64,000 bases of DNA from an uncultured Acidobacteriota bacterium (GTDB taxonomy: Bacteria; Acidobacteriota; JAQAZP01): contig CAWIIB010000001.1 of NCBI GenBank assembly GCA_963836075.1, positions 736,001-800,000 of the forward strand. Direction: 5' to 3'. Both the position numbers and the translations under genes were made by a program. The notes below the pieces were generated by a model. That model saw only the letters and a list, made by a program, of their open reading frames with translations, did no database searches and was not told where the DNA came from. This document shows, in pieces, positions 7,968-60,856 of the stretch (its first letter is position 1; every line of letters starts with the position of its first letter).

Positions 7968-10061
7968 TTACTGGACCGCCATCAATTTCGCGGTGGCCGC
8001 CTCGGCGTGTATCCCGTCCGGGGCCAGTTCGAGGTAGCGGCGCCAGTGGCCCGCCGCTTCGCTGTTGCGGCCCGAGGCGTGAAGGCAGGCGGCCAGCCCG
8101 TAGTGCGCGCCAGCGTAGTCGGGATCCAGCTCCAGTGCCCGGCGGTAGGACGCCTCGGCCCGGGCCGGGTCGCCCTTGCGGCTGTAAGCCATGCCGAGGT
8201 TGAAATGCGCCCGCTCCATGGCCGGGTCCAGCTCGGCGGCATGGCGGAACACGGAGATCGACTTGTCCACCAGCCCCGAGCGGAAGAGCGCCTCGCCGTA
8301 GTCCAGCTGGAAGAGCGCGTTGGTCGGGGCGAGACTCACCGCCCGGGAGAGACGCTGCACAGCCTCGGGGTAGCGTTCCAGACGCAGTGCGATAACCCCC
8401 AGGTTGTAGTGCGTCTCCTCGGCCTCCGGGTTGTAGCGCAACGCCTCCAGGTAGTGCTCCACGGCCTCCTGGTCACGGCCCAGCAACTGCAGGAGGAAGC
8501 CGGTCTTGAAGCGGACATTATGCCCGCCGGGGGATACGGCCAGGATCTCGAGGTAGACATCCAGCGCCTCCTCGTAGCGCTCCAGCTGGGTCAGGGTGGC
8601 GCCGAGGAACATTTTCGGTTCCAGGTGCACCATCTCCTTGGGATCGGGGGCCGGGCCGAAGAGGTCCGCGTTCCCTGCCGCGCCATCGCCGGTGACGTAG
8701 CCCAGGGCCAGCAGCTTCTCCCGCGTTTCGTCGTCAGTCCCGCCGGTCCCGGCCGCCGGCGCACCGCCTTCGGCTGTCAGGTCGTGCACCAGCTGTTCCA
8801 GGCGGCCGGCCAGTTCCCGCCCCCGGCCGTTCCAGCGGCCGTCCGGGTGGAGCAGCAGGTTGTCCAGTTCGGCGGGGTCGGCATCCAGATCGTAGAGTTC
8901 GGGAATCGGCGCCTCGATGTATTTCTGTCCCTCGCTGATCAGCGCCGCCAGCTCGCTCCAGCCGTAGTTGTAGCGCGGGTGCCAGGTCTCCATGTAGAGC
9001 AGCGATGAGCCGGCGCTGTCCGCCCCGTCGCGGACCGCCGCCGCAAAACTGCGGCCCTGAACCTGTTCTCGCAAGGCGCCGGCGTGCAGGCCCAGCAGAT
9101 CCAGCAGGGTGGGCGCCAGGTCGGCCAGGGCCGTCTGTTCGCCACACAGCGCCCCCTGGGGCACGGTCCCCGGCAGGCGGAGCACCAGCGGCACCCGGGT
9201 GGCGCTCTCGTAGATGAACAGGCCGTGGGTGTCCTCGCCGTGTTCGCCGAGGCACTGCCCGTGGTCGGCGGTGACCGCTACCAGCGTGTTCCGGTCCAGG
9301 CCCAGCCGCCGCAGCTGGGCCAGCACCCGTCCCAGCTGGCGGTCGCTGAAGGCGATCTCGCCATCGTAGAGATCATCGCGGAAGTGGCTGAAGAACGGTT
9401 CCGGCGGCACGTAGTCCTGGTGCGGGTCGAAGAGGTGCAGCCAGGCAAAGAAGGGCCTCCCCCCCTCCAGCCACTGGATCAGCCGGCCGCAGGTCTCGTC
9501 GGCCCGCCGTTCGGCCATGAACCCGAAGCGGGCCATGGAATCACGCTCCGGCATCTGGTCGTCATAGGTCTGGAAGCCCTGGTCCAGGCCGAAACGGTGG
9601 TCGAGGACAAAGGCCGAGACAAAGGCCCCGGTGCGGTAGCCGGCGGCGGACAGCATCTCGGCCAGGGTGTGGCGGTCCGGGGCCAGGGTGAAGACCCCGT
9701 TGGAACGCACCCCGTGGCCCGGCGGGTAGCTGCCGGTGAGGATGGTGGCGTGGGAGGGCAGGGTCACCGGCGTGGGCGCCGAAACCCAGGGCAGCACCGT
9801 GCCCTGCCGGGCCAGCCGGTCGATCACCGGGGTCATGGCCCGGGACCGGCCGTAGCAGCCCAGGCGGTCGGCGCGCACGGTGTCCAGGGTCACCAGCAGC
9901 AGGTTGGGGCCGTCGTGGACCGCTGCGGCACCGGTGCCGGAGACCGCGGCATCCTCCCCGCCCGGTCCGCCGCACGAAGTGGCGGCCAGGACGAGGAGTG
10001 CCGGCAGGAGAAAACGAATGGTGGACCGTTTCTTCAGGGCATGGTTCCCGTAATGGTGCAA
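7968..10061 (-). CDS. Sulfatase-like (alkaline phosphatase superfamily) lipoprotein with C-terminal TPR repeats
   Basis: Lipobox AATS-C; LLVTLDTVRAD, PVTLPSHATILTG, WLHLFDPH, TADHG, ELYDL..DP.E; TPRs in the last ~220 aa; start uncertain. Confidence 0.85.
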   Translation of the reverse strand: MHHYGNHALKKRSTIRFLLPALLVLAATSCGGPGGEDAAVSGTGAAAVHDGPNLLLVTLDTVRADRLGCYGRSRAMTPVIDRLARQGTVLPWVSAPTPVTLPSHATILTGSYPPGHGVRSNGVFTLAPDRHTLAEMLSAAGYRTGAFVSAFVLDHRFGLDQGFQTYDDQMPERDSMARFGFMAERRADETCGRLIQWLEGGRPFFAWLHLFDPHQDYVPPEPFFSHFRDDLYDGEIAFSDRQLGRVLAQLRRLGLDRNTLVAVTADHGQCLGEHGEDTHGLFIYESATRVPLVLRLPGTVPQGALCGEQTALADLAPTLLDLLGLHAGALREQVQGRSFAAAVRDGADSAGSSLLYMETWHPRYNYGWSELAALISEGQKYIEAPIPELYDLDADPAELDNLLLHPDGRWNGRGRELAGRLEQLVHDLTAEGGAPAAGTGGTDDETREKLLALGYVTGDGAAGNADLFGPAPDPKEMVHLEPKMFLGATLTQLERYEEALDVYLEILAVSPGGHNVRFKTGFLLQLLGRDQEAVEHYLEALRYNPEAEETHYNLGVIALRLERYPEAVQRLSRAVSLAPTNALFQLDYGEALFRSGLVDKSISVFRHAAELDPAMERAHFNLGMAYSRKGDPARAEASYRRALELDPDYAGAHYGLAACLHASGRNSEAAGHWRRYLELAPDGIHAEAATAKLMAVQ

Positions 10062-10399
10062 CCGTCAGTGGCCGTGTCACCCGATGGCGCGAAAGGCGGC
10101 TGGTTGTAAGGCGCCGGTGTCACGTCGGCACCGAGGATGGAGAACAGGCTCTGCCCCACCAGCGAGCCCAGGCCCGGGAAGTTCTGGTTCCAGCAGGTGC
10201 TGTAGGTCTCCGAGGGGCTGAGGTTGGTCCAACCGGCACGCCAGTTGGGATAGGTGGTGGCGTTGGGCAGCTGGAAGGTGATCGAAGCCGCCATCCGCCG
10301 GTTCTCGTCGGTGAGGTTGGTCAGCCCCGCACAAAACTGGGAGGCGAAGGGCAGCGTGCCGTTGTCCGGCAGGCAGCTCAAGCTCACCGCCAGGGTGTC
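10034..10399 (-). repeat. PYNQPP C-terminal domain, copy 1 (121 aa)
   Basis: DTLAVSLSCLPDNGTLPF...LTN...RAGWTNL...LVG...DVTPAPYNQPPFAPSGD...CTITGTMP*. Confidence 0.95.
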
Positions 10400-12688
10400 G
10401 GTGGGCGGCGGGGTGTCCGATTCGCCGGTGACCCGCACGTCGTCAACATACCAGCCGCCGGCGCTCACCGAACTGTCACAGGCCAGCCGGAAGCGGATGC
10501 TGGTGCTGGCGCCGCTGAAGGAACTGAGGTCCGCCACCACCTGGGTCATGGTTCCGCCGCTGTTGCCCGACCAGGCACTCCGGCCGCCGATGGGGCTGCT
10601 GTAACCGGTGGAGATGGTGTCGTTGTAGCCGCCCTGGGTGATCTGGGGACCGAGGTCGGTCCAGTTGGATCCGCCGTCGGTGGAGATCTCGATCACGCAG
10701 CCGTCGTAGCCGCCCTCCATGTCGTAGCGGTGCCAGAAGGTCAGCTCGCCGTTCAGCTCGAGGTTCACCGGGTCGGTGACCAGGTAGTCGTCCTTCAGCG
10801 CGTCGTCATCGGAAGAAAACCAGCAGTGGGTCGGGCTGTGGGCGCTGCCCTCGGTGATGATGGCCCAGTCGTCGACGCCCTGGCCCGCGCTGTGCGTCCA
10901 GAGGCTGTCGCCGCTTTCCATCTCGTCCCAGAACAGGTCGCCGCTGATGGTCAGGCTGAAGGTGTCGGTGTCGGAGAGCCCGCCGTCACCGCTGATGTTC
11001 AAGGTGAAGGTCACCCCGTGCAGCTCCGGTGTGGAGGCCGAGATGTCGATGGTGTAGTCACTGCTCGACGCCCCGGTGCCCGACTGTGGAATATCAGGGT
11101 AGCTGGAACTGTTCTGGGTCACGGTGATGTAGCTGTCGCTCTCGCTGAGCGTGGCCGACACGCCGGTGGCGGTGCCGATGCCGATGTTCTCCAGGATCAC
11201 GGTGAGGTCGACGGTTTCGCCCGGCTCGGGAATGCCGTTGCCGTTGCCGCCGGCGCTGTCGTCGAGGGCCACACTGTGGAAGTCGAGGTTCGGCTCGGCG
11301 GCCATGGCCACCAGCTGCACGTTGCGCACGGTCTCCTGTTCCCAGGTCACCGGCACGTTGTCCAGGGTCTGGTCATGGTAGCCCGGGGACGAGTAGGTCA
11401 CGTCGTAGCTGCCGGTGTGGAGCGGACGGACATAGTTGCCGTGGTCCGGGTCGCTGTGCACCGGTCTGTTCATGGTGATCCCGGCCACGTTGATGTCGGC
11501 AGCCAGGGGTGCGCCGGTGACCGAGTCGGTGACCGTGCCGGATATCCCCTTGCCCGCCAGGTCGATGTGGTAGAGCATGGAGTCCCGGTTGTCGTCCCAG
11601 TAGTCGGCGATTTGCGAGGCCGGCGGCGCCGAGGGGTCGGACAGCTCGATGATCACATCGAAATCGGCATACCACCAGTAGTTCCAGTCCTGCATATTGC
11701 CGTGGGTCATGTACCACTCGACGCCGCGGGTCACGCCGTCGGTGAAGGAGGTGCTGTTGTACATCGGCAGGTTGCGCGAGGAGTAGCCGATGGCCATGTT
11801 GTAGAAGAAGGTGTCGTCGGGGCAGTAGTCCCAGGTGCAGTCGTAGGGGTAGTTCACCACCGTTGCCCCGGTGTGGAAGTTGGCCGAGAGCACGAAGGTG
11901 TGGTCCGGCTGCCAGAGAATCATCAGCCCGGTCTCGGTGGCGCGTCCGGCAGGCGTATTGACCGGATCGTCGATGAAGTCGGGGAAATCACGGTTCAGGT
12001 CGGTGCCCTGGGCGTTGTAGCGGGATCCGGAGACATACCCGTCGGGATTCATCAGCGGCATGATGAAGATCTCGCGGCCGTTGACCATGGCGGTAATGTC
12101 CGGGTCCGACCCGTAATTCATCAGCAGGTGCTCGATGAGGTTGAGCAGCAGCGGAACGCAGAGGGTCTCGTTGCCGTGCATGGCGCCGACATACTTGAAT
12201 TCGGGCTCGGCCTCTTCCACGCTCACATTGTCGCTGATCTTGGCCACCCAGAGGTCGCGGCCATTGGTGGACTGGCCGATGCTGAAGACCTCGCAGAGGT
12301 CGGGATAGGCGGTCTCCATGCTCGCCATCCAGGTTTCCATCTCGCTGAATGTGGGATAGCTGGTCCACTCGCGTCCGGGGGCGGGGATGAAGCCCTGCTG
12401 ACCGATGGTCTGCAGGTAGTCCCGGCTGGTGTCCACGATGGGGTAGACGGTGAACCCTTCGGACAACAGTTCCAGCCGCTCCTTGGCCACCAGGTAAGCG
12501 TCGGCATATTCGCCTGGACGGACCGTGACGATGTCCAGGTTCATCTTCACCAGCCGGTCCACCGAGGAGGACTCGGTGATGTCGATGCGCATCAGCACCG
12601 GTTCCTCGGCCGCCGCCACGGCGGAAAAAGAAAACCCGGCCAGGACCAGCAAGACTGTCAGCAGCGTGGAAAAACGTGAGCAGTGCAT
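10034..12688 (-). CDS. Secreted multidomain M14 carboxypeptidase (N/E-type) with beta-sandwich domains and C-terminal PYNQPP domain
   Basis: AAGGAG RBS and signal peptide; AMHGNE, MNPDG, DLNRDFP, SANFHTG, GNMQDWNY; regulatory-like domain GISGTVTD; DDSAGGNGNGIPEPGE domain; M6/MAM-like LTFWH..YDG..EIS domain. Confidence 0.9.
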   Translation of the reverse strand: MHCSRFSTLLTVLLVLAGFSFSAVAAAEEPVLMRIDITESSSVDRLVKMNLDIVTVRPGEYADAYLVAKERLELLSEGFTVYPIVDTSRDYLQTIGQQGFIPAPGREWTSYPTFSEMETWMASMETAYPDLCEVFSIGQSTNGRDLWVAKISDNVSVEEAEPEFKYVGAMHGNETLCVPLLLNLIEHLLMNYGSDPDITAMVNGREIFIMPLMNPDGYVSGSRYNAQGTDLNRDFPDFIDDPVNTPAGRATETGLMILWQPDHTFVLSANFHTGATVVNYPYDCTWDYCPDDTFFYNMAIGYSSRNLPMYNSTSFTDGVTRGVEWYMTHGNMQDWNYWWYADFDVIIELSDPSAPPASQIADYWDDNRDSMLYHIDLAGKGISGTVTDSVTGAPLAADINVAGITMNRPVHSDPDHGNYVRPLHTGSYDVTYSSPGYHDQTLDNVPVTWEQETVRNVQLVAMAAEPNLDFHSVALDDSAGGNGNGIPEPGETVDLTVILENIGIGTATGVSATLSESDSYITVTQNSSSYPDIPQSGTGASSSDYTIDISASTPELHGVTFTLNISGDGGLSDTDTFSLTISGDLFWDEMESGDSLWTHSAGQGVDDWAIITEGSAHSPTHCWFSSDDDALKDDYLVTDPVNLELNGELTFWHRYDMEGGYDGCVIEISTDGGSNWTDLGPQITQGGYNDTISTGYSSPIGGRSAWSGNSGGTMTQVVADLSSFSGASTSIRFRLACDSSVSAGGWYVDDVRVTGESDTPPPTDTLAVSLSCLPDNGTLPFASQFCAGLTNLTDENRRMAASITFQLPNATTYPNWRAGWTNLSPSETYSTCWNQNFPGLGSLVGQSLFSILGADVTPAPYNQPPFAPSGDTATDGCTITGTMP

Positions 12689-12923
12689 AAAAGAACTCCT
12701 TGTTGCAAGACGGATGACATTCACCAACCCATCCCTTGATATTCACATTTTGTACCAGAACGTGTCGGTAATGACAAGGTTTTAGGGATACTCGGAAGAT
12801 CCATCAAAACTGGAGGTCAACAGACTGTTGCCACAGCCACGTCCCCCCGTCACGACCTTGACCATTCCCCCGAGGGCGCCACGCTGGGCATTTTTTTACC
12901 CAATTTCGACAATGAAATTCATA

Positions 12924-12952
12924 TTGACGCCGGACCTGCCAGTGATTATCAT
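12924..12952 (+). promoter_or_regulatory. Putative sigma70 promoter for the HEAT-repeat gene
   Basis: TTGACG-N17-TATCAT, ~65 nt upstream of ATG 13019. Confidence 0.55.
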
Positions 12953-13018
12953 CATGGAAAATAATGGTTTGCCGGCCCTGTGGTGCCCCGGCGGCCGGAC
13001 CACACCAAGGAGAATTCG

Positions 13019-17328: not shown

Positions 17329-19496
17329 CTACTGCATATACCCCAGTGCCCTGAGGTGTGCCCGGGTGGCTTCGTCCAGTTCGGCGGTGCCGTCCGATTT
17401 CTCCAGCGTGTCATAGAGCGACCGCTGGCGGGAGAGGTGGTCCATCAGCACGCTCTTCATCGCCAGCCGCCGTTCCGGGTCGAGGTCTGCGATGTTGATC
17501 TGTTCCTGCGGGTCGCTGGCCAGATCATAGAGCTGGTCCTCGCCGGTGTCCTCGTCCAGCACATACTTGAACTGCCCGTCGCAATAGCCTTTGAGGTCGC
17601 GGTAGTAGATCATCGACTCGTAGAACGCCGGGCGGTCCAGGGGCTCCTCCTCGCCGCGGATCAGCGGAAGCAGGCTCTGTCCTTCGGCCAGCTCGAGAGG
17701 CGGCAGGCCGAGGAAGTCGAGTATGGTGGGGGCCACGTCCACCAGGCGGACCTGGCTGTCGATCTGCCGGTTGGCCACCGCGTAGCCGTCGGGCAAACGG
17801 ATGACCAGCGGCACCCTCACCACCTCGGTGAAGAAGGTGTGGCCGTGGGAGACGTCGTGGTGCTCCCAGAACTCCTCGCCGTGGTCGGAGGTGAAGATGA
17901 TCATCGTGTTTTCCAGCAGTCCCAGCTCGCGCACCCGGTCGAGAAGACGGCCGATCTGCCGGTCGGTGTACTCCACCTCACGGTTGTAGAGATCCTCCAC
18001 GTGCAACCGGTCCACTTCCTCCAGCATGAGCCCCTTGCGGTAGCCCACCACCATCCCGGAATTGAGCGGCGGGATTTTGGTGCTGCGATATTTCTTGCCC
18101 GCCTCCTCGGTCCACTGGCCCCGGGCGATATACGGTTCGTGGGGATCGATCACGTGGAGCCAGAAGAAGAAGTTGCTCTCCCGGTTGGCCTCCAGGAAAT
18201 CGAGGGCGTAGTCGACGTGCATTCTGGAATTGCTGGTGTCCTGGCGGGCGGTGGTGTCGGGAAAAATGGTGCGCAGGAACCGGAACCAGAGGTTGGCCGA
18301 CCAGGTACCTGGGTCCGCAGCCGGTGCTTCATGTGGTCGTAGAACCTGAACCCCTGGTGCGCCCCGAAGGCCTCCAGCAGCCAGCCGTTGGACACCACCG
18401 CGCCGGTCATCATCCCCGCGTCTTCCAGCGTCTCGGCCAGGGTCACCCGCAGGTCGTCGAGACGGTCCTGCATCGAGGTCACTCCGTGGGCGGTGGGATA
18501 CATGGAGGTGTGAATGGTGCAAAGGGAGGGCAGGGTCCAGGGGGAATTGGCCTGCATGCTGGTGAAGACCACGCCGTCACGGGCCAGCTGGTCGAGGTTC
18601 GGCGTCTGCGGCCCCAGGGGGTCGGAGACCGACAACCGGTCGCCGCGCAGGGTATCCACCGAAATCAGGATCACGTTGAGGTTCTGCCGGGCGGTGGTTT
18701 CCACGGTGGCCATGCTGAACTGGGCTTTTTTGGCGGCCAGGGGCAGGAAGGTGCAGCAGGCCAGCAACAGCAGAACCAGGGTCAGCTGGTGCCGGGTGAA
18801 AAAGCTGCGCCGCCACCCGGCCTGGTAGCGGGGGGCGAGGAAACGCCAGGTGGCCCAGGTGAGCAGCAGCAGCCCGCCGAGAAACCCGGCCAGGATGAGA
18901 AAGAACTTCGCGTTGAATTCATACTTGAGGTAGACCCGGTTGACCCAGAGCAGCGGCGGCGTGAGCAAAATGGCCCACAACCCGAACGCCACCATCAGGG
19001 CTTTCAGCTTCGGTGCCCCGGGGTAGCGCCGCATGCGACCGGCCAGCATGCCCACGGCCAGACCGATGAACAGCCCGGCAAAGATCAGCCGCAGGTTGAA
19101 GAAGATCTTCGAAGGGTTGACCATCAGGTGCAGCTTGACACTCGGGTTGAACATCATGAAGATAAAGATCGTTACCACCACCGCCGTGGCCAGGCCGGAA
19201 AAGAAGGGCACGAACCGGTCCTCGTCCCGGAACAGCGGGTAGCGCCGGCCGAAGATCAGGTAGAGCAGCAGCGCCAGCAGCCCGAGAACCAGTCCCCAGC
19301 CCACCGCCTCGGCAAAGATCGGGGTGAAAAACACCTGGATCAGCTTGGGGATGGAGGTGAGCGGAACACCGGTGGACGCTCCTGATGTCACGGTGGTGGA
19401 GAGAAACCCTTCCTGGAATCCCAGCAGGGCCCCGAGGACCACGCCGGTGCGCCAGCCGAATCCAAGTACGTCTTTCCAGTTCATTCTATCTGTCAT
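17329..19496 (-). CDS. Sulfatase-like protein with N-terminal multi-TM domain; frameshifted at ~18300-18310
   Basis: ORF 18150..19601 gives several TM helices plus ISVDTLRGD and PWTLPSL; ORF 17329..18522 gives WLHVIDPH, TSDHGEEF, LYDLASDPQE and LRALGY; frames switch at RLRTQ..WSANLW. Confidence 0.8.
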
Positions 19497-25438: not shown

Positions 25439-26667
25439 ATGCCCAAACCGATACCCGCCGCCGATGCCCTCTCCCTGGTGCTCGGCCTGGCCCGCCCGGC
25501 CGCGGCCCGCCGGCTGCCGCTGTCCGAGGCGACGGGCTGCGTGCTGGACGAGGAGATCAGGGCCGACCGGGACGGCCCGCCGTTTGACCGGGCGATGATG
25601 GACGGGTTTGCCGTGCGGCTGTCCGACGCCGGTCAAACGGTCCCGGTGACCGGCGAGGTGGCCGCCGGTGCCGCGCCGGGGGAGCCGCTGTCGCCCGGCC
25701 GGGCAGTGCGGATCATGACCGGCGCCCCCTGCCCCGAAGGCACCGAGACGGTGGTGCCGGTGGAGGAGGTGACCTGGAGTCGGAGGGCCGGGTCACGCTG
25801 CCGGCGCACCTCAATGCTGAGAAGCACATTGCCCGCCGGGGCAGCGACCGCAAAGCCGGCGATCTGCTGCTGGCCCCGGGGCAGGCGGTGAACCCGCTCA
25901 CCGTGGCGGTGCTGGCCTCGTCCGGCTACGGGGAGGTGCTGGTCATCCCACGGCCCACGGTGACCGTGGTCTCCACCGGAAACGAGCTGGCGCCGGTGGG
26001 CAGCGATCCCGGCCCGTACGGGATCCGCGACAGCAACCGCCCGATGATGGAAGCCCTGGTCCGCGGGGCCGGGTTGACGCTGCATGAATCGCTGCATGCC
26101 GGCGACACCAGCTCCCAGCTGGAGGCCGCCCTGGGCCGGGCCATGGAAGCCGACGTGGTGATGGTGTCGGGCGGAGTGTCCGCCGGCAAATACGACCTGG
26201 TGCCCGGGACCGCTGAAAAACTGGGAGTCACCCGGAAGTTCCACAAGGTCTGGCAGAAACCGGGCAAGCCGCTCTTCTTTGGCAGCACCAGCCGCGAACC
26301 GGCCGGGCTGTTCTTCGGCCTGCCCGGGAACCCGCTGGCGGTACACTTCTGTTTTCACCACTACGTGCTGCCGGCGGCCCGGCTGCTGGCCGGACGGCCG
26401 CTGCCCGGCCGGGAGGGGCATGCCGTACTGGCCGAGCCATGCCGCCCCCGTGGCGGGCGGCCCTCCTGGCTGCCGGCCCGGGTGGAAGAGGAAACGGCCA
26501 GCGGCGCGCCGCTGGCCCGCCTGCTGACCGTCTCCGGCTCCGCCGACATCTATGGCGCGGCGGCGGCCAACGCCCTGGTGTTCCTCGACCCGCAGCGGGG
26601 CCCCCTGAAGAAGGGAGACGAGGTGGTCTTCTTCTGGCTCGGCCCCACCGAGGAGGTGTCCGGATGA
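25439..26667 (+). CDS. moeA: Molybdopterin molybdotransferase; frameshifted at ~25773
   Basis: PPFDRAMMDGFA, IMTGAP, then (after one missing C in gacc) STGNEL, DSN, SGGVSAG, KPGKP, GLPGNP. Confidence 0.88.
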
Positions 26668-31454: not shown

Positions 31455-31480
31455 TCTTCTTCCCCCCTTGAAGAAAGGAA

Positions 31481-31816
31481 TTAGCCACAGGTCTCGGGCT
31501 GATCGGAATCGGCGGCATGGTTGACCAGGAAGGTCAGGATGTGGATCAGCTGATCCGCGGGCACCAGGTCCTCGAGCTTCTCGGTCTTGTTGTTATGGGT
31601 GCCCTTCTTGAAATACCGCTCCCACTGGGACATGGTTTTGGTGAGCGGGCTCACCTCTCCGCCCTCACCGTCCTTTACATGACAACTCTTGCATGACTCC
31701 TTGAACAGGGCCTTACCCTTCTTGTCATCCCCCTGGGCCTCGGCCATGATCAGGCTGGTTGACAGAAAGGCAGCGCAACAGAGCAAAGCCATGAACATCC
31801 AAACCGTTCTCCTCAT
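31481..31816 (-). CDS. Small periplasmic monoheme cytochrome c
   Basis: AAGGAG RBS, signal peptide, CKSCH, C-terminal HAADSDQPETCG. Confidence 0.88.
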   Translation of the reverse strand: MRRTVWMFMALLCCAAFLSTSLIMAEAQGDDKKGKALFKESCKSCHVKDGEGGEVSPLTKTMSQWERYFKKGTHNNKTEKLEDLVPADQLIHILTFLVNHAADSDQPETCG

Positions 31817-33786: not shown

Positions 33787-34152
33787 TCAGGGAGCACTAC
33801 CGGTGACCGTGCAACTGTCGGACGCGGTGTCACCGGCAGGGGCAAAGGGCGGCTGGTTGTAGGGGACCGGGGTGACGTCCTGGCCCACCAGGTTGAACTG
33901 GTTGTCGCCCACCAGCGAACCCAGCGCCGGCAGGTTCTGGTTCCAGACCGCATTGTAGGTCTCGTAGGGCGCCAGATTGGTCCAGCCGGCCCGGAAACTG
34001 CCGAAGAAGCTGCCCGAGGCAATCTGCAGCTGCAGCCTGGCGGCGGCCCGCCGGTTCTCGTCGCTGAGGTTGGTCAGCCCGCAATTGATCTGAAAGGCAA
34101 AGGGCAGGGTTCCACTGCCCGGCACGCAGGTCAACACCGTGTCGATGGTATC
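33787..34152 (-). repeat. PYNQPP C-terminal domain, copy 2 (121 aa)
   Basis: DTIDTVLTCVPGSGTLPF...LTN...RAGWTNL...LVG...QDVTPVPYNQPPFAPAGD...CTVTGSAP*. Confidence 0.95.
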
Positions 34153-36525
34153 CACCGGCGGGGTCTGCCCCACGCCGAAGAAGCTGAGGATCCCGGCCAG
34201 CAGTTCCTCCCTGGTGCTGGGGGAGGCCCCGTCATCCAGCCCGCCGAACTCGAAGGCGAACCCCACGGTGAGGTAGCTGCCGCCGTCGTAGGAGATGCCG
34301 TTGTCATAGACCGGACTGCCGTTGGTGAACAGGGTGACCGCACCCGCTCCGGGTGAAATGTGGTCCATGTAGGCATTGCTGCCGCTGTAGGTGAAGGACA
34401 TGCCCTCGGTGAGGGTGCCGGCCACGCCGTTCACCGGTCCGCAGTCGCCGGTGCCGTCAGCGTCGCCGGTGATGTGGAAGTAGGGGTGCACCGCGGTGGC
34501 GGTGTCGTAGGCCCAGGTGTCGCCCCCCTCCATGTAGAGCCGGCCGCCCCCGTCGAGGTAGGCGGCCAGAATGCTGCCTTCGCCGCTGGTCAGCACGTGG
34601 TTGCCGGAGTAGATACCCAGACAGGCGAAGATCGCCTCGTAGAGCGCGGGATCGGCCGGCAGGGATGACCCGTTGTCATAGCCCAGGCCCAGACCGTCCA
34701 GGGCTGAGGTCAACGCCGCTTCGGAAATGCTCCCCGAGGGGTTCCAGACGTAGACCGGGATGGAGGAGACGATGCTGAAGCCGTGATACCCGGCAGCCGG
34801 ATGCCAGGTGGTGTTCAAATCACCCGAAGCGTCCACCGCGCGAATCCGGTATTCCACCAGGTCACCGTCGCTCACCGCGGCGACAAAATCGCCTGCCCAG
34901 GTATAGCCGCCGGTGTTGGTCATCGGCACCTCGGCCTGGGGCGCGCCATTGACGCTGTATTCCAGCACCACTTCGCTGAGACCGCTGGCATCGGTCACCG
35001 TGGCGGTCACCGTGGCCGGCCAGCCGCCCAGGGACTGGTCCCCCAGCGGGGTGTGGGTGATCACCGGCCAGTCGCCGGTGCTGGAAACCAGGAACCGGTG
35101 CGCGCCGGCGGATCCGATGTAGGGGTGATTCTCCGCCCGGCCCGAGTCGTCCTCGGCGTGGATGTAGTAACGGACCGAGGTGCCGTCAGCCTGGGCCGGG
35201 ATGGTGCCCTGCCAGCTGTCGCCGCCGGTGCTGGTCATGGTGACGCTGGTGAAGAAACCGCCGTCGATGCTGTATCGCAGCTGGGGGAATCCGCTGCTCA
35301 GCGGCTGACCGCTGTAGGGGTGGATTTCGGCGGTCACCAGGTAATCGCCGCCGGCGCCCTGGGGATCGATCAGCGGGGTGTGATCGATGTAGAGCATGTA
35401 ACGGTCCATGATCCCCTTGGCCCGGCAGTGGATCGCGTCGTCGGAGAGCCAGGAGCCGTCGAAGCCGATGATCTCGTAGCCCGGCATGGCGTCCTGGTAG
35501 ATCTGCAGCGCCACCGCGTCATGGGAGGTGCCGAAGGTGGGTACCAGCACCTTGGTGTTCAGGATCAGCGAGTTGGTGTAGGCCTCGGTGTAGCCGGTGC
35601 CCACCGGCACCCGGATGATCTCGTACGGCGTGCCCCAGGAACTGGTCAGGGTCTGGAGGAAGGCCACGTTGGCCTCCAGTTCCGGGTCGGCGGGAGTCTT
35701 CTCCTCCACCAGGATGGTGTCCACGTCGAGAAACTTCTTGGTGCAGTCGATATGATGGATGCCGCCCGACTCGGTGTAGGGCAACGGGTAGTAGTCGGTG
35801 ATGCCGCAGTAGTCGAGGAGGATCTGGTCCACCTGGGCCCCGGTCATCCCCGGGTTCTCGTCGAGGATCAGACGGGTGCTCATTCCCACGCCGCGGCCGT
35901 CACACATCCAGTTGCCGCCGGTGGCCACCAGGTCCATGCCGTAGACCGGGATGCCGAGGTAGTCGCCGAACTCCTGGGGGATCTCGTCATCGTTGGGCCG
36001 CGGGCGGTTGTAGATGTGGTCGACGATACCCTGCTCGTCGTTGCCGGTGTAGACATACCAGGGCCCGTAGTCCCGGGTCCAGTAGGAGTCGGTGCCGGCG
36101 ATGAAGAAGTGGCAGTTGGCCATGTTCACGCCGCTGGAACTGTAGGCGCTTTCCGCCGAGGTCTGCTGTGAAGCGCTGCCGACGATAGTCCAGACCTCCA
36201 CGTCTTCGGACATCTCGGCAATCAGGTCGTAGGGGATGCCCAGGGGCCAGCGGATCAGCACGCCGGTCACCGGCTCGAACTCGCCGGCCATGCGCACCGG
36301 CACCGGAGGCGCCGCCGTGCCGCGGAAGTTGATGCCGATCTCATCCTTGCGCGCTTCCTCCTCCGGGGTCATCCAGATGGGGAGGCTGTGCGGGTTCTCA
36401 TCCAGCCACTTCTGCTGCTCGGCGGTGAGCGGCCGTCCAGCGGGATCGGCAACGGCCTGAATGGTTCCACAGAACAGAGCACAGATCAGCAGCAGGCGCA
36501 GGATCGACACTGGGGAGATGGACAT
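33787..36525 (-). CDS. Secreted agmatine/peptidylarginine deiminase family protein with Ig-like domains and C-terminal PYNQPP domain
   Basis: Signal peptide; RMAGEFEP, WTRDYGP, GGNWMCDG, HID, YTNSLILN, DAIHC; repeated IxHTP...YYIxA domains; YLDGGGRLYMEGGDTW domain. Confidence 0.9.
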   Translation of the reverse strand: MSISPVSILRLLLICALFCGTIQAVADPAGRPLTAEQQKWLDENPHSLPIWMTPEEEARKDEIGINFRGTAAPPVPVRMAGEFEPVTGVLIRWPLGIPYDLIAEMSEDVEVWTIVGSASQQTSAESAYSSSGVNMANCHFFIAGTDSYWTRDYGPWYVYTGNDEQGIVDHIYNRPRPNDDEIPQEFGDYLGIPVYGMDLVATGGNWMCDGRGVGMSTRLILDENPGMTGAQVDQILLDYCGITDYYPLPYTESGGIHHIDCTKKFLDVDTILVEEKTPADPELEANVAFLQTLTSSWGTPYEIIRVPVGTGYTEAYTNSLILNTKVLVPTFGTSHDAVALQIYQDAMPGYEIIGFDGSWLSDDAIHCRAKGIMDRYMLYIDHTPLIDPQGAGGDYLVTAEIHPYSGQPLSSGFPQLRYSIDGGFFTSVTMTSTGGDSWQGTIPAQADGTSVRYYIHAEDDSGRAENHPYIGSAGAHRFLVSSTGDWPVITHTPLGDQSLGGWPATVTATVTDASGLSEVVLEYSVNGAPQAEVPMTNTGGYTWAGDFVAAVSDGDLVEYRIRAVDASGDLNTTWHPAAGYHGFSIVSSIPVYVWNPSGSISEAALTSALDGLGLGYDNGSSLPADPALYEAIFACLGIYSGNHVLTSGEGSILAAYLDGGGRLYMEGGDTWAYDTATAVHPYFHITGDADGTGDCGPVNGVAGTLTEGMSFTYSGSNAYMDHISPGAGAVTLFTNGSPVYDNGISYDGGSYLTVGFAFEFGGLDDGASPSTREELLAGILSFFGVGQTPPVDTIDTVLTCVPGSGTLPFAFQINCGLTNLSDENRRAAARLQLQIASGSFFGSFRAGWTNLAPYETYNAVWNQNLPALGSLVGDNQFNLVGQDVTPVPYNQPPFAPAGDTASDSCTVTGSAP

Positions 36526-38636: not shown

Positions 38637-39002
38637 TCACGGGCGCCAGGCGACGACCGTGCACATGTCGCTGGCCATGCTGCCCGATGCGGGGTATGGC
38701 GGCTGGTTGTAGGGCGCCGGAGTGACGTCCTGTACCACCAGCTGGAACAGGGTCGACCCGTCCAGCGTGGGCAGATCGGGGAACCACTGGCTCCAGCAGT
38801 AATGATACGTTTCCGCCGGGGAGAGATTGGTGAACCCGCGGCGGTAGTTGGGGAAATACTGCCCGCCGGGCAGCGCGACGTTCAGTATGCCGACAGCGCT
38901 GCGGGGATAGCCGGAGACGTTGATCACATCCCCGCACATCATACTGGAGAACGGCAGGGCGCTGGAGTCAGGCGTGGCGGAAAGCGCGGCGTCAACCGTC
39001 TG
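38637..39002 (-). repeat. PYNQPP C-terminal domain, copy 3 (121 aa)
   Basis: QTVDAALSATPDSSALPF...N...RRGFTNL...LDG...QDVTPAPYNQPPYPASG...CTVVAWRP*. Confidence 0.95.
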
Positions 39003-40538
39003 GTCCCCCGAGTACCCCATGTCGGTCCTGATGACAAACGCATCACAGTCGCCGTTGTGCGACTGGTCGAACCCCGTGCCGGACAGCTGAAAATTGTCGC
39101 TGAAAGTGTAGCCGGCCACCACCGCGGTGAGGCCGCTGCTGTCCAGGGCCAGCTCGTAGGCCTGGTCACAGTTGATCCCCCCCATGTATGACGCGTAGAT
39201 CAGGGTGGACAGGTCGCCGCTGACCCGGGCTACGAACCCCTCCATGGCGCCGTTGTACGTCTGGTCCGTGGCGTCGGGGGTTGCCGGGAAATCGATGGAG
39301 TGGCTGCCACCGCAGATCACCAGATCACCGGCGGCATCCAGCTCCACCGAGTAGATCTCGTCCATGTGCCGGCCGCCCATGTAGCTGGAGTGGATCAGGC
39401 TGCTCAGGTCGGGGCTCATCACCGCCAGAAAACCGTCGTAGGCCTGGGCCGTACCGTCGTTGAACTGGGGGTCGAAGGTGCCGAGGGTGATGGGAAAGTC
39501 GTGGGAGTGGGTGGTTCCCACCACCACCAGGTTGCCCTGGGTATCGAATACCAGGCCGTTGGCCTCGTCGCAACCGCCTTCATGGTCGCCGCCATGAAAA
39601 GGCTCGCCCCAGTCGTGGCCGCCAAGGTAGGTGCAGGCATGGAGGCTGCTGAAATCGGCGGAGAAGAGGGCGATATACACGTCGCGCGAACCGCCGTTGT
39701 GATCCAGGTCGAACGCACCGGCGGTGGTGGGCAGGTTTTCGGAGTTCGCCCAGCCGGTGAGATAGTAGCGGCCGCTGCCGTCCCGAAGGATGGCCCGGTT
39801 GTAGTCGTCCAGGTCCCCGCCCAGATAGGTGCCGGCGGAGACCGCCGAGAGGTCCTGGGAGAAGCGGATGAGAAAGATATCCCGGGTGCCCCCGTTGTAC
39901 GTGGTGTCAAAGGCCCCGGCCGTGACCGGGAACCCCTGGGACCGGGTGTCCCCCCCCACCACCACCGCCCCCGAGGGCTCGACCCAGACCGTCCGGGAGA
40001 AATCCTTGTGTTCGCCGCCGAACAGCGTGGAGTGCAGCAGGGTGGACATGTCGGAGGAAAGCCGGAGCAGGAAGGCATCCTCGTGAACCGTGTTGTGCGC
40101 GGTGTCGAACGCCCCGGGCGTGGTGGGAAAATCGAGCGAGAGGGTGGAACCGCCCAGCAGGATGTTCCCCGCGGCATCGAGGGCCATGCACGGCCCGGGA
40201 TTGTCCATCTGGAAGTAGGGATCGAACTCGAAGTCGAGACCATCGTGCTCCGAACCGCCGATGAAGGTCGAGGCGATCAGCGTGCCCAGGTCGGCGGAGA
40301 GCCGCAGGACGAACAGGTCGCTGTCCCCGCCGGCAAAAGATCCGCCATACAGACCGGCGGTCACCGGAAAATCGTCCGATCCGGTGAGGCCGGCCACCAG
40401 GACGTCACCCTGATCATCGATCACTACGCTGTAGGCGGCATCCCGCTGGCCGCCCCCCAGAAAGGTGGAATAGTCCACCGCCGTGGCGGAGGTTGCAAAC
40501 AACAGCATGATCGACAGAATCCCGATGAATCTGGGCAT
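38637..40538 (-). CDS. Secreted SBBP-like beta-propeller repeat protein with C-terminal PYNQPP domain
   Basis: Signal peptide; about 7 repeats STxxGG..D......D..G.....G.T.S.DFP.T.GAFD...NG...D.F. Confidence 0.88.
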   Translation of the reverse strand: MPRFIGILSIMLLFATSATAVDYSTFLGGGQRDAAYSVVIDDQGDVLVAGLTGSDDFPVTAGLYGGSFAGGDSDLFVLRLSADLGTLIASTFIGGSEHDGLDFEFDPYFQMDNPGPCMALDAAGNILLGGSTLSLDFPTTPGAFDTAHNTVHEDAFLLRLSSDMSTLLHSTLFGGEHKDFSRTVWVEPSGAVVVGGDTRSQGFPVTAGAFDTTYNGGTRDIFLIRFSQDLSAVSAGTYLGGDLDDYNRAILRDGSGRYYLTGWANSENLPTTAGAFDLDHNGGSRDVYIALFSADFSSLHACTYLGGHDWGEPFHGGDHEGGCDEANGLVFDTQGNLVVVGTTHSHDFPITLGTFDPQFNDGTAQAYDGFLAVMSPDLSSLIHSSYMGGRHMDEIYSVELDAAGDLVICGGSHSIDFPATPDATDQTYNGAMEGFVARVSGDLSTLIYASYMGGINCDQAYELALDSSGLTAVVAGYTFSDNFQLSGTGFDQSHNGDCDAFVIRTDMGYSGDQTVDAALSATPDSSALPFSSMMCGDVINVSGYPRSAVGILNVALPGGQYFPNYRRGFTNLSPAETYHYCWSQWFPDLPTLDGSTLFQLVVQDVTPAPYNQPPYPASGSMASDMCTVVAWRP

Positions 40539-40677
40539 GGCCTGCTCCAAGGTTTTTCAGCCGTCGACAAACCCCCGGATGCGGATGCACCGCCGGCGTC
40601 AACGCAACAGTATAATCATAGTGACTTTTCACCCGTATCGGCAAGTCCGGCCGGGCAGATCAGGACGGACAGTGGAG

Positions 40678-45207: not shown

Positions 45208-45359
45208 GGTCGTCATCTCCTTGTAATCAGTCCTGGGGCGCCGGGCGCCGCGTGCAAGCGCCCATTCTACGACCACCCGTCCGGCAAGACAATAGCCGGC
45301 AAAACCGTTATAATTCCGGATTCCTTTTCAGCCCGCAATCTGAGTCGATGGAGAACGAG

Positions 45360-47368
45360 ATGGACAACCCGGACCGCCGCCAACGAAAATCGGGCCTGAG
45401 CCCCCTGGCTTACGAGAGGGTGCCAAAGGGTCAGAAATACGAGCCATACATCCCGGTGAACTCGATCATGGCCGAGTTCACCATCAGCGCCTGTGTCCTT
45501 GGCGGGCTGTTCGGCATCATCTTTGGTGCGGCCAACGCCTACCTCGGCCTCAAGGTGGGCCTGACCATCTCCACCTCGGTGCCCATCGCGGTGATCACCG
45601 TGGCGGTCTACAAGGCGATCGAAAAGCTGATCCGTAAGAAAGCCACCATCCTCGAAGCCAACATCGCCAAGACCGCCGGATCGGCCTCCTCTTCGCTGGC
45701 TTCGGGCATCATTTTCACCATCCCGGCCCTCTATCTCTGGGGCCAGGGAGCCCAGCTGCTCCAGGTCACCGCCCTGGCCCTTTGCGGCGGGACCCTCGGG
45801 GTGCTGTTCATGATCCCGCTGCGCCGCTTCCTCATCGTGGAAGAGCACGGCAACCTGCCCTACCCCGAAGGTACGGCCGGCGCCGAGGTGCTGGTGGCTG
45901 CCGAGGAGGGCGGCTCGGCGGCCAAGCAGGTGTTCTACGGCATGGGCTTCGCCGCACTGTTCAAACTTGGCATGGCGGCGTTCAAACTCTGGAAGGACGA
46001 GATCGAGTTCAAGATCCCGCTGCTGAAGAAGGGTGTGATCGGCGTCGATCTCACCCCCGCCCTGCTGGGCGTGGGCTACATCCTCGGCTACCGGGTGGCG
46101 GCGATCATGGTGGCCGGCGGCCTGCTGGCCTGGCTGGGAATCATCCCGCTGATCGCTTTCCTCGGCGAATCGATCTCAATCCCGGTCTTTCCCGAAACGG
46201 CGAAGACCATCTCCCAGATGGACGCCCACGAGCTGTGGAACGGCTACATCCGGTATGTGGGAGCCGGCGCCGTGGCGTCTGCCGGGATCATCACCCTGAT
46301 CCGTTCCATCCCCACCATGATCCGCAGTTTCCGCATCGCGCTCAAACAGCTGAAAGCCGGAGCGCAGAAGGTTTCCGAAACCTGCCGCGCACCGACCGCG
46401 ACCTCTCGCTGCTCTGGGTGGTTCTGGGCGCGCTGGTGGTGGTGATCATCCTCGGCCTGACCCCCGACGTCTTCGGCGGTCAGCTGCCGCTGGCCGGCAA
46501 GTGGCTGGCCGCGGTGCTGGTGGCGGTGTTCGCCTTCTTCTTCGTCACCGTCAGTTCGCGGATCGTGGGGCTGGTGGGGGTCACCTCCAACCCCACGTCG
46601 GGGATGATCATCGCCACCCTCATCGGCACCTCCTCGATCTTCCTCCTCCTCGGCTGGACCGGCATGGAGGGCAAGATCGCCGCTTTGACCATCGGCACGG
46701 TGGTGGGTATCGCCGCCTCGGTGGCCGGTGACACCTCCCAGGACCTGAAGAGCGGCTTCCTGCTGGGGGCCACCCCCTGGCGTCAACAGGTGGCCGAGAT
46801 CCTGGGCGTGGCGGCCACCGCCGGGGTGATCGCCTGGACGGTGATGGTGCTGGCCCAGACCTACGGCTTCGAATACAGCGCGGCCACCCCCACGCCGCTG
46901 GCTGCCCCCCAGGCCAACATGATGAAACTGGTGATCGACGGTGTGCTGGACCAGTCGATCCCCTGGGGCCTGGTGCTCTTCGGGGTGGTGATCACCATCT
47001 TCTGTGAAGTGGTAAAGATCCCCTCCCTGCCCTTTGCCGTGGGCGTCTACCTGCCCCTCTCGGCCATGAGCCCGGTCTACATCGGCGGGGTGATCCGCAA
47101 GGTGATCGAAAAACGGTGCGGCGGAGACGAGAAAAAGATCCAGGAGCGCCGCGAGCGGGGCATCCTCTTCGGCTCGGGAATGGTGGGCGGAGACGGGATC
47201 ATCGGCGTGGCCATCGCCGCCTATGCGCTGTATACCAAGAAGAAGCCCGGGGGATTCGGTTCGGCCTGGGCCGGCGGCGACATCGGCCAGACCCTGTTGG
47301 CCCTGGTGCCCTATGTCCTGCTGATCATCCTGCTGATCCGGGCCACGCGGTTGAAGAAAGCCGCCTGA
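45360..47368 (+). CDS. OPT family oligopeptide transporter; frameshifted at ~46378
   Basis: ANAYLGLKVGLT.S.S.P, LPYPEG, then SNPTSGM, QDLKSGFLLGATP, APQA.MM, FAVGVYLP; one A missing in gaaa run. Confidence 0.9.
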
Positions 47369-51656: not shown

Positions 51657-52426
51657 CTATGAACAGAACAGTTTCACTGCAAAAATAATAACCGCAGCCA
51701 CCAGGATGCGGTAGACCCAGACCTCTCCCTTTTTCACCTGCCAGCGGACGCCGGCCCAGCCGCCGATCATGGTTCCCGCGGCCAGGGTCAGCCCCCAGAC
51801 CCAGTGCACGCTGCCCAGGGTGGCAAAAATCGACAGGGCGATGACCTGGATCATCATGATGGTCATCACCTTGATGCCGTTGGAGCGGATCAACCCCAGG
51901 CCGCCGAAGCTGCTGAGCGCGGCAATGATCACAAAGCCCACACCGGCCTGAATAAACCCGGAATGAAACCCGACAAAGAAGAAACTGGCATACAGGGCCA
52001 GGGGGCGACGCTCCCCGCCAGTCCGGCAGGCGACGGTCCGGGACCGGGCGACCGGCGACGCCGGATGATGGAGACCAGCACCAGCAGCATCACGGCGCCC
52101 AGCACCCAGCGGAACAGCCGGTCGTCCACGTCCACGGCCACCAGGGCGCCCAGTGCGGCACCGGGCGCCGCGGCAAGCATCAATCGCAACCCCAGGCCGG
52201 CCTCCAGCAGCCCCTGCCTGCGGAAAGTGGACGTGGCCACCACGTTCTGCAGCAGGATGCCCACCCGGTTGGTGGCGTTGGCCGTGGCGGCGGGCAGACC
52301 GAGGAACAGCAGCACCGGCAGGGTGAGCAGCGACCCGCCACCGGCCACCACGTTGATGAACCCGGCCGCGAGGCCGGAAAAGAAAACCAACGCGGTGAGC
52401 GTCATGTCAGAGTTCAACAGGTCCAT
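51657..52426 (-). CDS. TSUP (TauE/SafE) family transporter; frameshifted at ~52005-52050
   Basis: AGFINVVAGGGSLLTLP..ANATNR; second frame FFVGFHSGFIQAGVGF...NGIK...GTMIGGWAG. Confidence 0.85.
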
Positions 52427-56717: not shown

Positions 56718-56751
56718 AGCGTCTCCCGGAAGTGCGCTCGAACCATCCTGA

Positions 56752-58458: not shown

Positions 58459-58600
58459 GGGTGAACCTCCGGAAAAGAACTGTGTCGGCAGAGGCGATAC
58501 GTGGGAGAAATTCTAGCCGGGTGCCGACAGGGTGTCAACGAACCGGCCGGGGACCCTGCCTTTCGCCGGCGCAACGGTTGGCGACAATTCCAACAATAGC

Positions 58601-58782
58601 TGTGGAAAACCTTGTGGAAAAATGAGCCGCAGGTTCTGCAAGTCAAAGCGGGACAAGGACTTTGCTTGAAATGACCGAAATGTGTAATTGCGCATTTCAC
58701 TGAAAACATTAGGGTTACGAGCAGGATTATTCCTCCGTGCCTCAGTCATCCCCGATTCTGGTCCCAACCCACTTTTTCCACA
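58601..58782. promoter_or_regulatory. DnaA-box-like motifs
   Basis: TGTGGAAAA at 58601-58609 and 58613-58621, TTTTCCACA at 58774-58782; all fit TTWTNCACA. Confidence 0.5.
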
Positions 58783-58925
58783 CGCCCAAGAGCAATAAAA
58801 ACCGCCATTTAGTCAAAAACAGCTCACTAATTTTGCCTGCCCGGCGTGTATCCTGCACACCTGTCATGGCGGAATTGGTGGGCAGACCGGTAGTGGCTGG
58901 TCGCGCAGTCCACAGAGGCCCGTTC

Positions 58926-58953
58926 TTGACTATCCCGTATATTTTCCTATATT
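58926..58953 (+). promoter_or_regulatory. Putative sigma70 promoter for the 59063 gene
   Basis: TTGACT-N16-TATATT in an AT-rich stretch. Confidence 0.45.
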
Positions 58954-59062
58954 TAACAGTACAAGGCCGTGGTCATTCCTTTATCCGGATTTTCAATACC
59001 TACTAAAATCAGGATTATCAGGAGACCCGCGGGGTATTCTTCAGGTCTAAAGGAGGCACAGA

Positions 59063-60856
59063 ATGTCACGACGAATCTTCAACGCACTCATAATGGTCAG
59101 CCTGCTCGCACTCATCGCTACGGCGGCCTCGGCGGAGTATCCGATCGACGTACCAGGAGTGTATCACCACCGGGATACTCCCGGTCTGGATCGCAGTGTC
59201 TGCGTGCTCGAACGGGTTGACGGCGGTTTTGACCAGCGGGTCCTTTCTTCCGGCGGACCGCCGGCACCGGGCACCCGGGTGGCCGGAGAGATGTGGCGCG
59301 TGGAGGACTGGGACGGCGCGTACGGCGCCATCGCCGAGGACGTGCAGATCTCCGGCAACGGCCAGCGGATTCTCACCGCCTGGAACCTGAACTACGAACG
59401 GTTCAGCCTCTTCCCCATCGACAACGACACACCGCTCTGGGAGTACGCCCTGGCCGATGGCTCCACCCAGGTGGGCGGCTACGTCAGGGCGGCCATCGCC
59501 GATGACGGGATGAGCATGGTGGGCGGCGCCAGCCGCATGGACACCATCCCGGCCAGCGGCGAATACTCGCGGGTCTTCCGTTTCAGCACCAGCGCGACCC
59601 CCGACTGGACCTTCGACCTGCCCACCGACCCGGAGATCTGGCACCTGCAGGACGTGGCCCTTTCCGGCGACGGGAGCACGGTCGGGGTGCTGGCCATCGA
59701 TAACAGCGCCACCACCGGCCGGGTCTACGTTCTCGACGGCATTTCAGGCACCGAACTCCACCAGTGGGACTTCGACTACACGGTTTCCAGTTCGCTGTAC
59801 AACATCGATTTCAGCGGCGACGCCTCCCGGCTGGTGGTGGGCTGCCGCAAACTGATCCATGTCTATGACATCCCCGGCGGGCTGCTCCAGACCATCACCC
59901 TGGCCTACGACTGCCAGTGCCCGGCCCGGATCACGCCCGATGCCGGCTACATCGCCGTGGGCAATCTCCGCGGCCGGCTCACCGTCTACACCCTCGCCAC
60001 AGCGGACGGCACACCGGACCTCTACACGGAATACTGGACCTATACCATCCCGCCCGACTACTACTACCCCTGGATCCAGACCGTGGCGGTGGCCGCCGAC
60101 AGCAGCCGGGTGCTGGTGGGCTCGTACCAGCCGAACGCGACCAGCAGCCATGGCTACCTCTACTTCTTCGACATGGACGGAACCGAACCGCAGTGGTCTT
60201 CCGAGGACTCGGGCGGACTGGTGGAGGAGGTGGCCTGCAGCGCCAACGGCACGGTGGCCTGCGCCGGCTCGTGGGGCGATCTCGACGGGGCCATGGGCTG
60301 GTGCTGTCTGATCGCCACGGACAATGGCGCACGGTACACCCTGACCAGCATGGACTACGGCGGATCGCTCTTCTCTGCCGACATCGATGACGCCGGGTAT
60401 TTCGCCACCGGCGGGAGCAAGCGGGTCCACGCCTACGAGTTCGGCAGCGGCGGCCACACCTTTGCCATGTTCTCAGGGATCAAGGTGGAGACCTTCCTCC
60501 TCGACATCGAGTTGACGCCGAGCACCGGCACTCTGCCCTTCTTCGGCACCACCACCCTCACCCTGACCAACCTGACCAACGGGCCGCGCACCTCCGCGGG
60601 CCGCGTGGACGTCATCGTGGCCAGCGGGGCCAGACTGAACAATGTCCGTGGGGGGTACGCCAACGTCCCTGCCGGAGATGTAGTACAGTTCTCCTACCCA
60701 CAGAAATTCCTCGAACGGCAGTACCTGGTGGGCGAAAACACCTTCATCCTCACCGGACAGGATGTGACCAACGCCCCGTACAACCAGCCGCCGTACTATC
60801 CGGCGGGCGACAAGGATATGGACAGCTTCGTGGTCACCTGCACCTGGCAGCCGTGA
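59063..60856 (+). CDS. Secreted WD40/PQQ-like beta-propeller protein with C-terminal PYNQPP domain
   Basis: AAGGAGG RBS; signal peptide; repeats V.ISGNG, AIADDG, VALSGDG, IDFSGDA, ITPDA, VAADS, ACSANG with P.W motifs. Confidence 0.85.
   Translation: MSRRIFNALIMVSLLALIATAASAEYPIDVPGVYHHRDTPGLDRSVCVLERVDGGFDQRVLSSGGPPAPGTRVAGEMWRVEDWDGAYGAIAEDVQISGNGQRILTAWNLNYERFSLFPIDNDTPLWEYALADGSTQVGGYVRAAIADDGMSMVGGASRMDTIPASGEYSRVFRFSTSATPDWTFDLPTDPEIWHLQDVALSGDGSTVGVLAIDNSATTGRVYVLDGISGTELHQWDFDYTVSSSLYNIDFSGDASRLVVGCRKLIHVYDIPGGLLQTITLAYDCQCPARITPDAGYIAVGNLRGRLTVYTLATADGTPDLYTEYWTYTIPPDYYYPWIQTVAVAADSSRVLVGSYQPNATSSHGYLYFFDMDGTEPQWSSEDSGGLVEEVACSANGTVACAGSWGDLDGAMGWCCLIATDNGARYTLTSMDYGGSLFSADIDDAGYFATGGSKRVHAYEFGSGGHTFAMFSGIKVETFLLDIELTPSTGTLPFFGTTTLTLTNLTNGPRTSAGRVDVIVASGARLNNVRGGYANVPAGDVVQFSYPQKFLERQYLVGENTFILTGQDVTNAPYNQPPYYPAGDKDMDSFVVTCTWQP
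60488..60856 (+). repeat. PYNQPP C-terminal domain, copy 4 (122 aa)
   Basis: ETFLLDIELTPSTGTLPF...LTN...RGGYANV...LVG...QDVTNAPYNQPPYYPAGD...VVTCTWQP*. Confidence 0.93.

Follow-up and report, generated by a model that had tools for sequence, protein, structure and literature searches.

Four proteins encoded in the window, a stretch of 64,000 nucleotides from an uncultured bacterium of the Acidobacteriota (positions 736001-800000 of contig C1 in genome G000, whose assembly comprises 6.23 Mb in 10 contigs at 94.7% completeness and 4.6% contamination), carry a signal peptide and share their last ~121 residues, as the first-pass annotation of this DNA had proposed. This C-terminal domain, hereafter the tag domain, is best read as a localization tag and is probably a new address label of exported proteins. 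It is found 224 times in 223 open reading frames (ORFs) of the genome (iterated hidden Markov model search of all six-frame ORFs), which bears out the prediction of many more copies genome-wide; as far as sequence models can tell, it is a family missing from Pfam and NCBIfam.

Copies, position and cargo of the tag domain

The last ~121 residues of the four window proteins align with 26 invariant columns, including D-V-T, P-Y-N-Q-P-P and the final Pro, and with a mean column identity of 64%. They comprise the 25 columns that had been reported, whose numbering there differs by one residue, and in addition the terminal Pro; the alignment, described earlier as gapless, is interrupted by a single-residue indel close to the C-terminus in the fourth copy, and the earlier coordinates had counted in the stop codon of all four copies, so that Table 1 gives the corrected coding parts. 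Three of the proposed cargo identities (M14, PAD and SBBP) are upheld by Pfam, whereas the WD40-like propeller is not: the fourth body matches no family above threshold. The signal peptides, judged by eye, are of the Sec type. At their other end, the four proteins show neither a transmembrane helix nor a basic tail; the tails end in a β strand followed by ...AP, and no NCBIfam sorting-signal model matches them, in agreement with the earlier statement that they are unlike LPXTG and PEP-CTERM signals.

Across the genome, the match among tag copies is far beyond chance, because the profile built from the four window copies scores 150 places (among 287 candidates), all with E <= 2.7e-35. Full-length copies number 177 and lie in 176 of the 4568 genes (3.9%) called with a home-made gene caller. 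Their position is almost invariably terminal: 172 of the 177 end within 5 residues of the stop codon, two end 6-20 residues before it, and only three are internal (>20 residues). Of these three, one lies in a protein fused from two paralogues, one is a degenerate second copy in addition to the terminal copy of the same protein, and one comes from a frameshifted end. An 899-residue fused protein (G000:C9:2819387-2822086) is composed of two paralogous halves, the first ending in the tag and the second, by eye, in a PPC-like end. The final residues are themselves conserved, with A-P in 105 of the 177 copies and Pro in at least 142. Since 168 of the 176 tagged genes are located on the two large contigs, contamination is not their source.

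Signal-peptide-like N-termini occur in 127 of the 176 tagged genes and, under the same permissive rule, in 1341 of the 4392 other genes; several of the 49 tagged genes that fail the rule plainly have a missed signal peptide or are N-truncated ORFs. The expected association of a nearly always terminal, almost always single copy with signal-peptide proteins is thereby supported as an enrichment. The bodies that precede the tag are unrelated to each other: a Pfam scan of 82 family representatives returned β-helix/NosD, S8, M14, M28, C25, C1, FG-GAP, SBBP, PQQ, LTD, GH5 and BNR families, among others. Within the tag, Trp, Tyr, Asn, Gln, Arg and Asp are frequent at the conserved positions. A Cys column in the first strand and another in the last strand co-vary over the 177 copies (both present in 118, neither in 28, only one in 31), which fits a disulfide bond and an extracytoplasmic life.

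The family is narrow, being restricted to one genus. Among 41 related genomes, the tag is found in three (G000, G001 and G002), all of this genus and each with at least 109 scored matches, and it is not found in the 38 genomes of other families in the same phylum, of which the unpublished G025 enters with its count only; a pattern scan of 185,579 species genomes located it in two public assemblies only. Of the 87 full-length copies counted at 78 loci of the two other assemblies, 83 are terminal. When 1.84 billion representative proteins were searched with the profile, only 496 matched at E <= 0.001, and 357 of those at E <= 1e-30; in the best 150 representatives, the domain is terminal in 146.

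Six orthologue pairs (P0159-P0162, P0279 and P0280) have cargo bodies that are 80-86% identical and tags that are 60-88% identical; in four of the six, the tags reach only 60-63%, roughly the level seen between paralogous tags. At the level of sequence, this suggests either a fast drift outside the invariant positions or an exchange of tags among paralogues by recombination. A comparison of copy identity within the own genome and across genomes, which covered the 78 loci of the other assemblies only, was uninformative.

Table 1. Genes with a tag domain in the window and the corresponding domain copies. E-values refer to the profile of the four copies.
Feature	Position	Strand	Description
Cargo gene 1	10034..12727	-	Signal peptide, M14 carboxypeptidase, CarboxypepD_reg, MAM/choice-of-anchor J, C-terminal tag domain (ORF, Pfam); start codon uncertain, somewhere in 12652-12727; choice-of-anchor J match just below the NCBIfam cut-off (26.1 vs 30 bits)
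Tag domain copy 1	10037..10402	-	122 residues, ending ...GTMP; stop codon 10034-10036; E 5.7e-63
Cargo gene 2	33787..36525	-	Signal peptide, PAD_porph (agmatine/peptidyl-arginine deiminase family), CBM_56, C-terminal tag domain (Pfam)
Tag domain copy 2	33790..34155	-	E 1.5e-62
Cargo gene 3	38637..40550	-	Signal peptide, SBBP β-propeller repeats, C-terminal tag domain (Pfam)
Tag domain copy 3	38640..39005	-	E 4.6e-62
Cargo gene 4	59063..60856	+	Signal peptide, body without a family above threshold, C-terminal tag domain
Tag domain copy 4	60485..60853	+	No Cys pair; one-residue insertion near the end; E 7.6e-57

Tail junction, fold and relation to known domains

In other lineages, full-length homologues of the M14 body (33-37% identity at 94-99% coverage) end in Por_Secre_tail or FlgD_ig; in three of them, the tail is found at residues 722-801 of 804, 757-835 of 840 and 751-826 of 829. 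Homologues of the PAD body (48-55% identity at 97-99% coverage), some of which are labeled Eisenbacteria by their source, carry FlgD_ig, and in the three that were examined to the end this tail is terminal; a dockerin forms the end of one homologue with 65% identity, and PKD domains are present in further ones. PAD-body homology stops at one shared point (...I-L-x-F-F), beyond which the tails diverge. The tag thus takes the same position on M14 and PAD bodies that is taken in other lineages by the C-terminal domain (CTD) of type IX secretion system (T9SS) cargo or by a FlgD-Ig tail; this swap of tails supports, on the evidence of the alignments, the earlier idea that it fills the same slot.

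The tag does not resemble these tails in sequence. Neither Pfam-A nor NCBIfam has a model that matches the tails of the four window proteins, nor does either match any of 30 isolated copies at E <= 1, and the tails of the 82 family representatives yield no Pfam match at 1e-5; these InterPro-type checks accord with the original failure to recognize a named family. The T9SS CTD models (TIGR04183/PF18962) leave the four window tails unmatched at E <= 0.1 and the 30 isolated copies unmatched at E <= 1, and a comparison by hhalign of the 177 copies with 15 canonical T9SS/FlgD-Ig tails gives a probability of 1% and E 0.054 in local mode and nothing in global mode. FlgD_ig (PF13860) is not matched in the 30 isolated copies, its single sub-threshold match in the genome (25.4 bits) lying away from any tag copy. 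The CARDB model (PF07705) finds nothing in the genome at E <= 0.001, with a control positive in 7 of 14 genomes, and type I dockerin (PF00404) gives no Pfam match to the tag, whose predicted fold is all-β. PDB sequences contain one match, at E 0.057, and the nearest clusters in the ESM Atlas, of CARDB/DUF11 type, score <= 0.88 (none >= 0.9) and are a lead only. The string 'PYNQPP' has no occurrence in a literature text search, and the literature on choice-of-anchor and C-terminal sorting domains holds nothing relevant among the listed titles or abstract starts. No strong match to a characterized domain is therefore found in Pfam or NCBIfam, and frequent internal or tandem occurrence is not seen.

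AlphaFold2, run on an alignment of 30 copies, predicts an eight-strand immunoglobulin (Ig)-like sandwich (mean predicted local distance difference test score 94.8, predicted TM-score 0.83), in which a long loop at model residues 94-109 bears the invariant motif. The structure and Foldseek comparison foreseen in the first-pass annotation thus ends in a confident sandwich without a specific named relative: fold searches return many unrelated Ig-like sandwiches, with 75 chains at Z >= 8, and none stands out clearly. The best match is RbmA (Z 12.1, root-mean-square deviation (rmsd) 2.7 over 106 residues, TMq 0.74), and the others include a transglutaminase C-terminal domain (Z 11.2), CARDB (Z 9.9) and macroglobulin domains (Z 9-10); the CARDB-like fold 3idu (Z 9.9, rmsd 2.7 over 101 residues, Foldseek E 6.8e-4) is one among the 75 chains. 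A prediction of self-association with two tag copies scores 0.27, below the 0.42 mark, and is not evidence either way.

The closest parallel in layout is the type A CTD of the T9SS (Por_Secre_tail, FlgD_ig): it is likewise a folded Ig-like β-sandwich at the extreme C-terminus of unrelated, Sec-exported proteins, present in tens to hundreds of copies per genome and attached at the same junction to M14 and PAD homologues. The two differ in that there is no similarity between them in sequence or profile, that the tag has ~120 residues and eight strands against a model length of 72-79 positions, that the tag has a long invariant Pro-rich loop and a Cys pair, and that no T9SS genes are detected here. 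Type I dockerin is also a C-terminal module of many secreted enzymes, located at the same position on PAD-body homologues, but it is a small helical calcium-binding module, while the tag is all-β in the AlphaFold model and has no known cohesin-like partner here. The CARDB and DUF11 adhesion domains have a similar sandwich fold and represent the nearest ESM Atlas cluster type; unlike them, the tag is a single terminal module. RbmA, a biofilm scaffold of Vibrio cholerae (PDB 4be5, 4kkq), matches at 10-14% identity, barely above many unrelated sandwiches, and is a two-domain matrix protein rather than a tag on other proteins. PPC (PF04151), finally, is a C-terminal β domain on secreted peptidases as well, but its model does not match the tag; in one representative, a PPC lies upstream of the tag, at residues 240-309 of 446.

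A candidate apparatus and its alternatives

The first-pass annotation had viewed the domain against the T9SS tails of Bacteroidota and other Fibrobacterota-Chlorobiota-Bacteroidota lineages, a frame that finds no support here: such tails are essentially not found in the 38 other genomes of the phylum, and no T9SS core gene is detected here. In the whole genome, the best TIGR04183 match has 19.5 bits, under the 23-bit cut-off; PF18962 has 0 matches in G000, G001 and G002, Por_Secre_tail occurs in 1 of the 41 genomes of the phylum, and FlgD_ig has 0-5 matches per genome. Of the T9SS components that the annotation had named for checking, together with others, SprA (two models), PorV, GldM, GldN and PorP/SprF are all without a match in the genome, PorV being the only one with a positive control; the SprA model finds nothing in any of the 41 genomes, and no giant SprA-like protein is seen by eye among the 21 proteins of >=1300 residues. 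Two proteins of ~2180 residues (G000:C9:1011957-1018487 and C9:2267534-2274079) that have an anchor at the N-terminus and Phe as the last residue resemble TamB/AsmA by eye. With neither a canonical tail nor a T9SS core gene detected, the usual T9SS route would not be available. In the window, the Pfam scan of 45 further genes contains no secretion machinery, consistent with the earlier remark that none is evident there.

Against this background we tentatively favor, at a likelihood somewhat short of even, a lineage-specific C-terminal address tag that is recognized by a dedicated, candidate envelope apparatus. Cargo would cross the inner membrane by Sec, as the signal peptides indicate; in the periplasm, the tag would fold into the modeled eight-strand sandwich, in which a disulfide would usually tie the first strand to the last, as suggested by the model and the co-varying cysteines. 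The folded tag would then be recognized by the apparatus, putatively through the invariant D-V-T-P-x-P-Y-N-Q-P-P loop, a W-R-A-G-W-T-N strand and the free ...A-P terminus, and the cargo would be moved across the outer membrane, fixed to it, or both. Such an apparatus would work like type IX secretion without being homologous to it. A more far-reaching form of this proposal, possible but rather doubtful, is that the tag marks cargo for a previously undescribed outer-membrane export-and-attachment system, which would serve ~200 proteins per cell in a lineage without type IX secretion and have its components among the unannotated genes of the genus. If that were true, the export of proteins in large numbers by means of a folded C-terminal tag would have an independent evolutionary origin here, no type IX secretion being detected in the lineage.

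Several observations weigh against a dedicated apparatus. No candidate reader is found. The genes that recur up to two positions away from tagged ones encode FG-GAP proteins, kinases and sigma/anti-sigma pairs, and no envelope machines are seen among them. Two copies of the domain occur in 8 of the best 150 representatives, in 7 of them as a tandem, which is unusual for a pure export signal; no conserved motif, and hence no obvious cleavage site, is present upstream of the domain. The control genomes gave no positive for SprA, GldM, GldN or PorP, so that these negatives are uncalibrated. A type II secretion system (T2SS)-like cluster, assigned by eye from gene order and N-termini as was a type IV pilus cluster, could export folded proteins free of a tag.

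The one sortase candidate had to be rejected, as it is not co-distributed with the tag. The PorU model matches C25 peptidases only, under its cut-off; the PorU-like C25 peptidase in question (G000:C1:1027244-1029985 on the minus strand, 914 residues, 201.9 bits vs a 420-bit cut-off) has an orthologue in G001 (65% identity), none found in the 100% complete G002 with its >100 tagged proteins, and homologues in 17 tag-free genomes, a distribution that adds to the points against a dedicated apparatus. It belongs to a cassette (G000:C1:1026742-1032447) of a PqqD-radical SAM/SPASM protein, a 74-residue ORF, an HprK-like P-loop protein, the C25 peptidase with its signal peptide and an S24/S26-like peptidase; this arrangement resembles a cluster for peptide maturation that includes an unusual protease.

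The foremost alternative, which we consider possible although on the unlikely side, is a passive surface anchor or docking module: the cargo would leave by a general export route, for example a T2SS-like one, and then bind non-covalently to a shared glycan, as SLH domains do, or to a scaffold protein, in the manner of dockerin and cohesin. The dockerins at the end of PAD-body homologues elsewhere, the resemblance of the conserved Trp, Tyr, Asn, Gln, Arg and Asp positions to sugar-binding sites, the matrix scaffold RbmA as best fold match, the tandem copies (7 of 150), which would raise avidity, the T2SS-like cluster and the lack of a dedicated machine among our findings are all what such a module would lead one to expect; indeed, all the evidence for a dedicated apparatus fits it equally well. 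It leaves a strictly terminal position and a conserved free ...AP end superfluous, as neither is needed by a lectin-like module, and a scaffold with repeated receptor domains is not seen, no systematic search having been made for one. Moreover, ~200 folded cargoes would be very many for a T2SS. It is from the very large number of cargoes and the strictly terminal, conserved end that we infer a dedicated apparatus in preference to a passive anchor.

An improbable alternative is that the tag has no role in localization and acts as a substrate-binding or spacer domain akin to CARDB or a CBM, binding environmental polymers or merely stabilizing exoproteins. The general sandwich fold, with its similarity to CARDB (3idu), macroglobulin and transglutaminase domains at Z 9-11, and the CARDB/DUF11 lead from the ESM Atlas agree with this. 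However, the CARDB model has no match in the whole genome while its control is positive; internal or repeated occurrence is common in CBMs and CARDB domains, and the tag is terminal in 172 of 177 copies. It is also found on propellers and β-helices that are not enzymes, and sorting or anchor tails take its place in homologues at a single, fixed junction.

Still less probable is a removable C-terminal pro-domain that aids folding or passage and is cleaved off after secretion, as PPC is. Peptidases of the S8, M14, M28, C25 and C1 families are frequent among the cargoes, and the fused protein whose halves end in the tag and, by eye, in a PPC-like stretch would suit such a role; many cargoes are no enzymes, though, the junction has no conserved motif, and the PPC model does not match the tag. 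A highly divergent T9SS CTD whose cryptic T9SS escaped the models, finally, is very improbable: slot, fold class and cargo types are shared and the SprA, GldM, GldN and PorP searches had no positive control, but the profile-profile comparison with the 15 canonical tails stays at 1%, the SprA (two models), PorV, GldM, GldN and PorP/SprF models find nothing in the genome, and across the 41 genomes of the phylum SprA is found in none and Por_Secre_tail in one.

Surrounding features and significance

An all-against-all comparison of the last 110 residues of proteins reveals no second tag of the sandwich kind; the other abundant C-terminal modules are FG-GAP-like ends and an ...L-R-A-L-G-Y-L end. 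FG-GAP-like repeats end 128 proteins genome-wide, with examples in the window at 915-1787, 1667-3502 and 41227-42429, and FG-GAP proteins are the commonest neighbors of tagged genes (68 of 523). About 50 proteins, sulfatase-like by eye, have the common C-terminal end ...L-R-A-L-G-Y-L-Q, which may be a second short terminal motif.

In the window, the genes of an OPT transporter (45348-47365), TauE (51660-52426), a sulfatase (17332-19484) and MoeA (25439-26664) are all broken into a pair of ORFs that adjoin or overlap. This suggests frameshift errors in the assembly, which would leave some tag genes N-truncated or broken. A DUF3373 protein (29973-31798) adjoins a small cytochrome c and a sigma-54 activator.

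To our knowledge, the T9SS is the only characterized case, in bacteria with two membranes, of a folded C-terminal tag carried by hundreds of unrelated proteins. The tag domain presents a T9SS-like layout with an unrelated domain, in a phylum in which T9SS genes are not found and T9SS tails essentially not found. If a reader exists, it would represent a new secretion or surface-display route; if none does, the domain would be a new surface anchor of general use. In both cases, it provides a marker for the exoproteome of an uncultured lineage (~4% of its genes) and a portable tag for surface-display testing.

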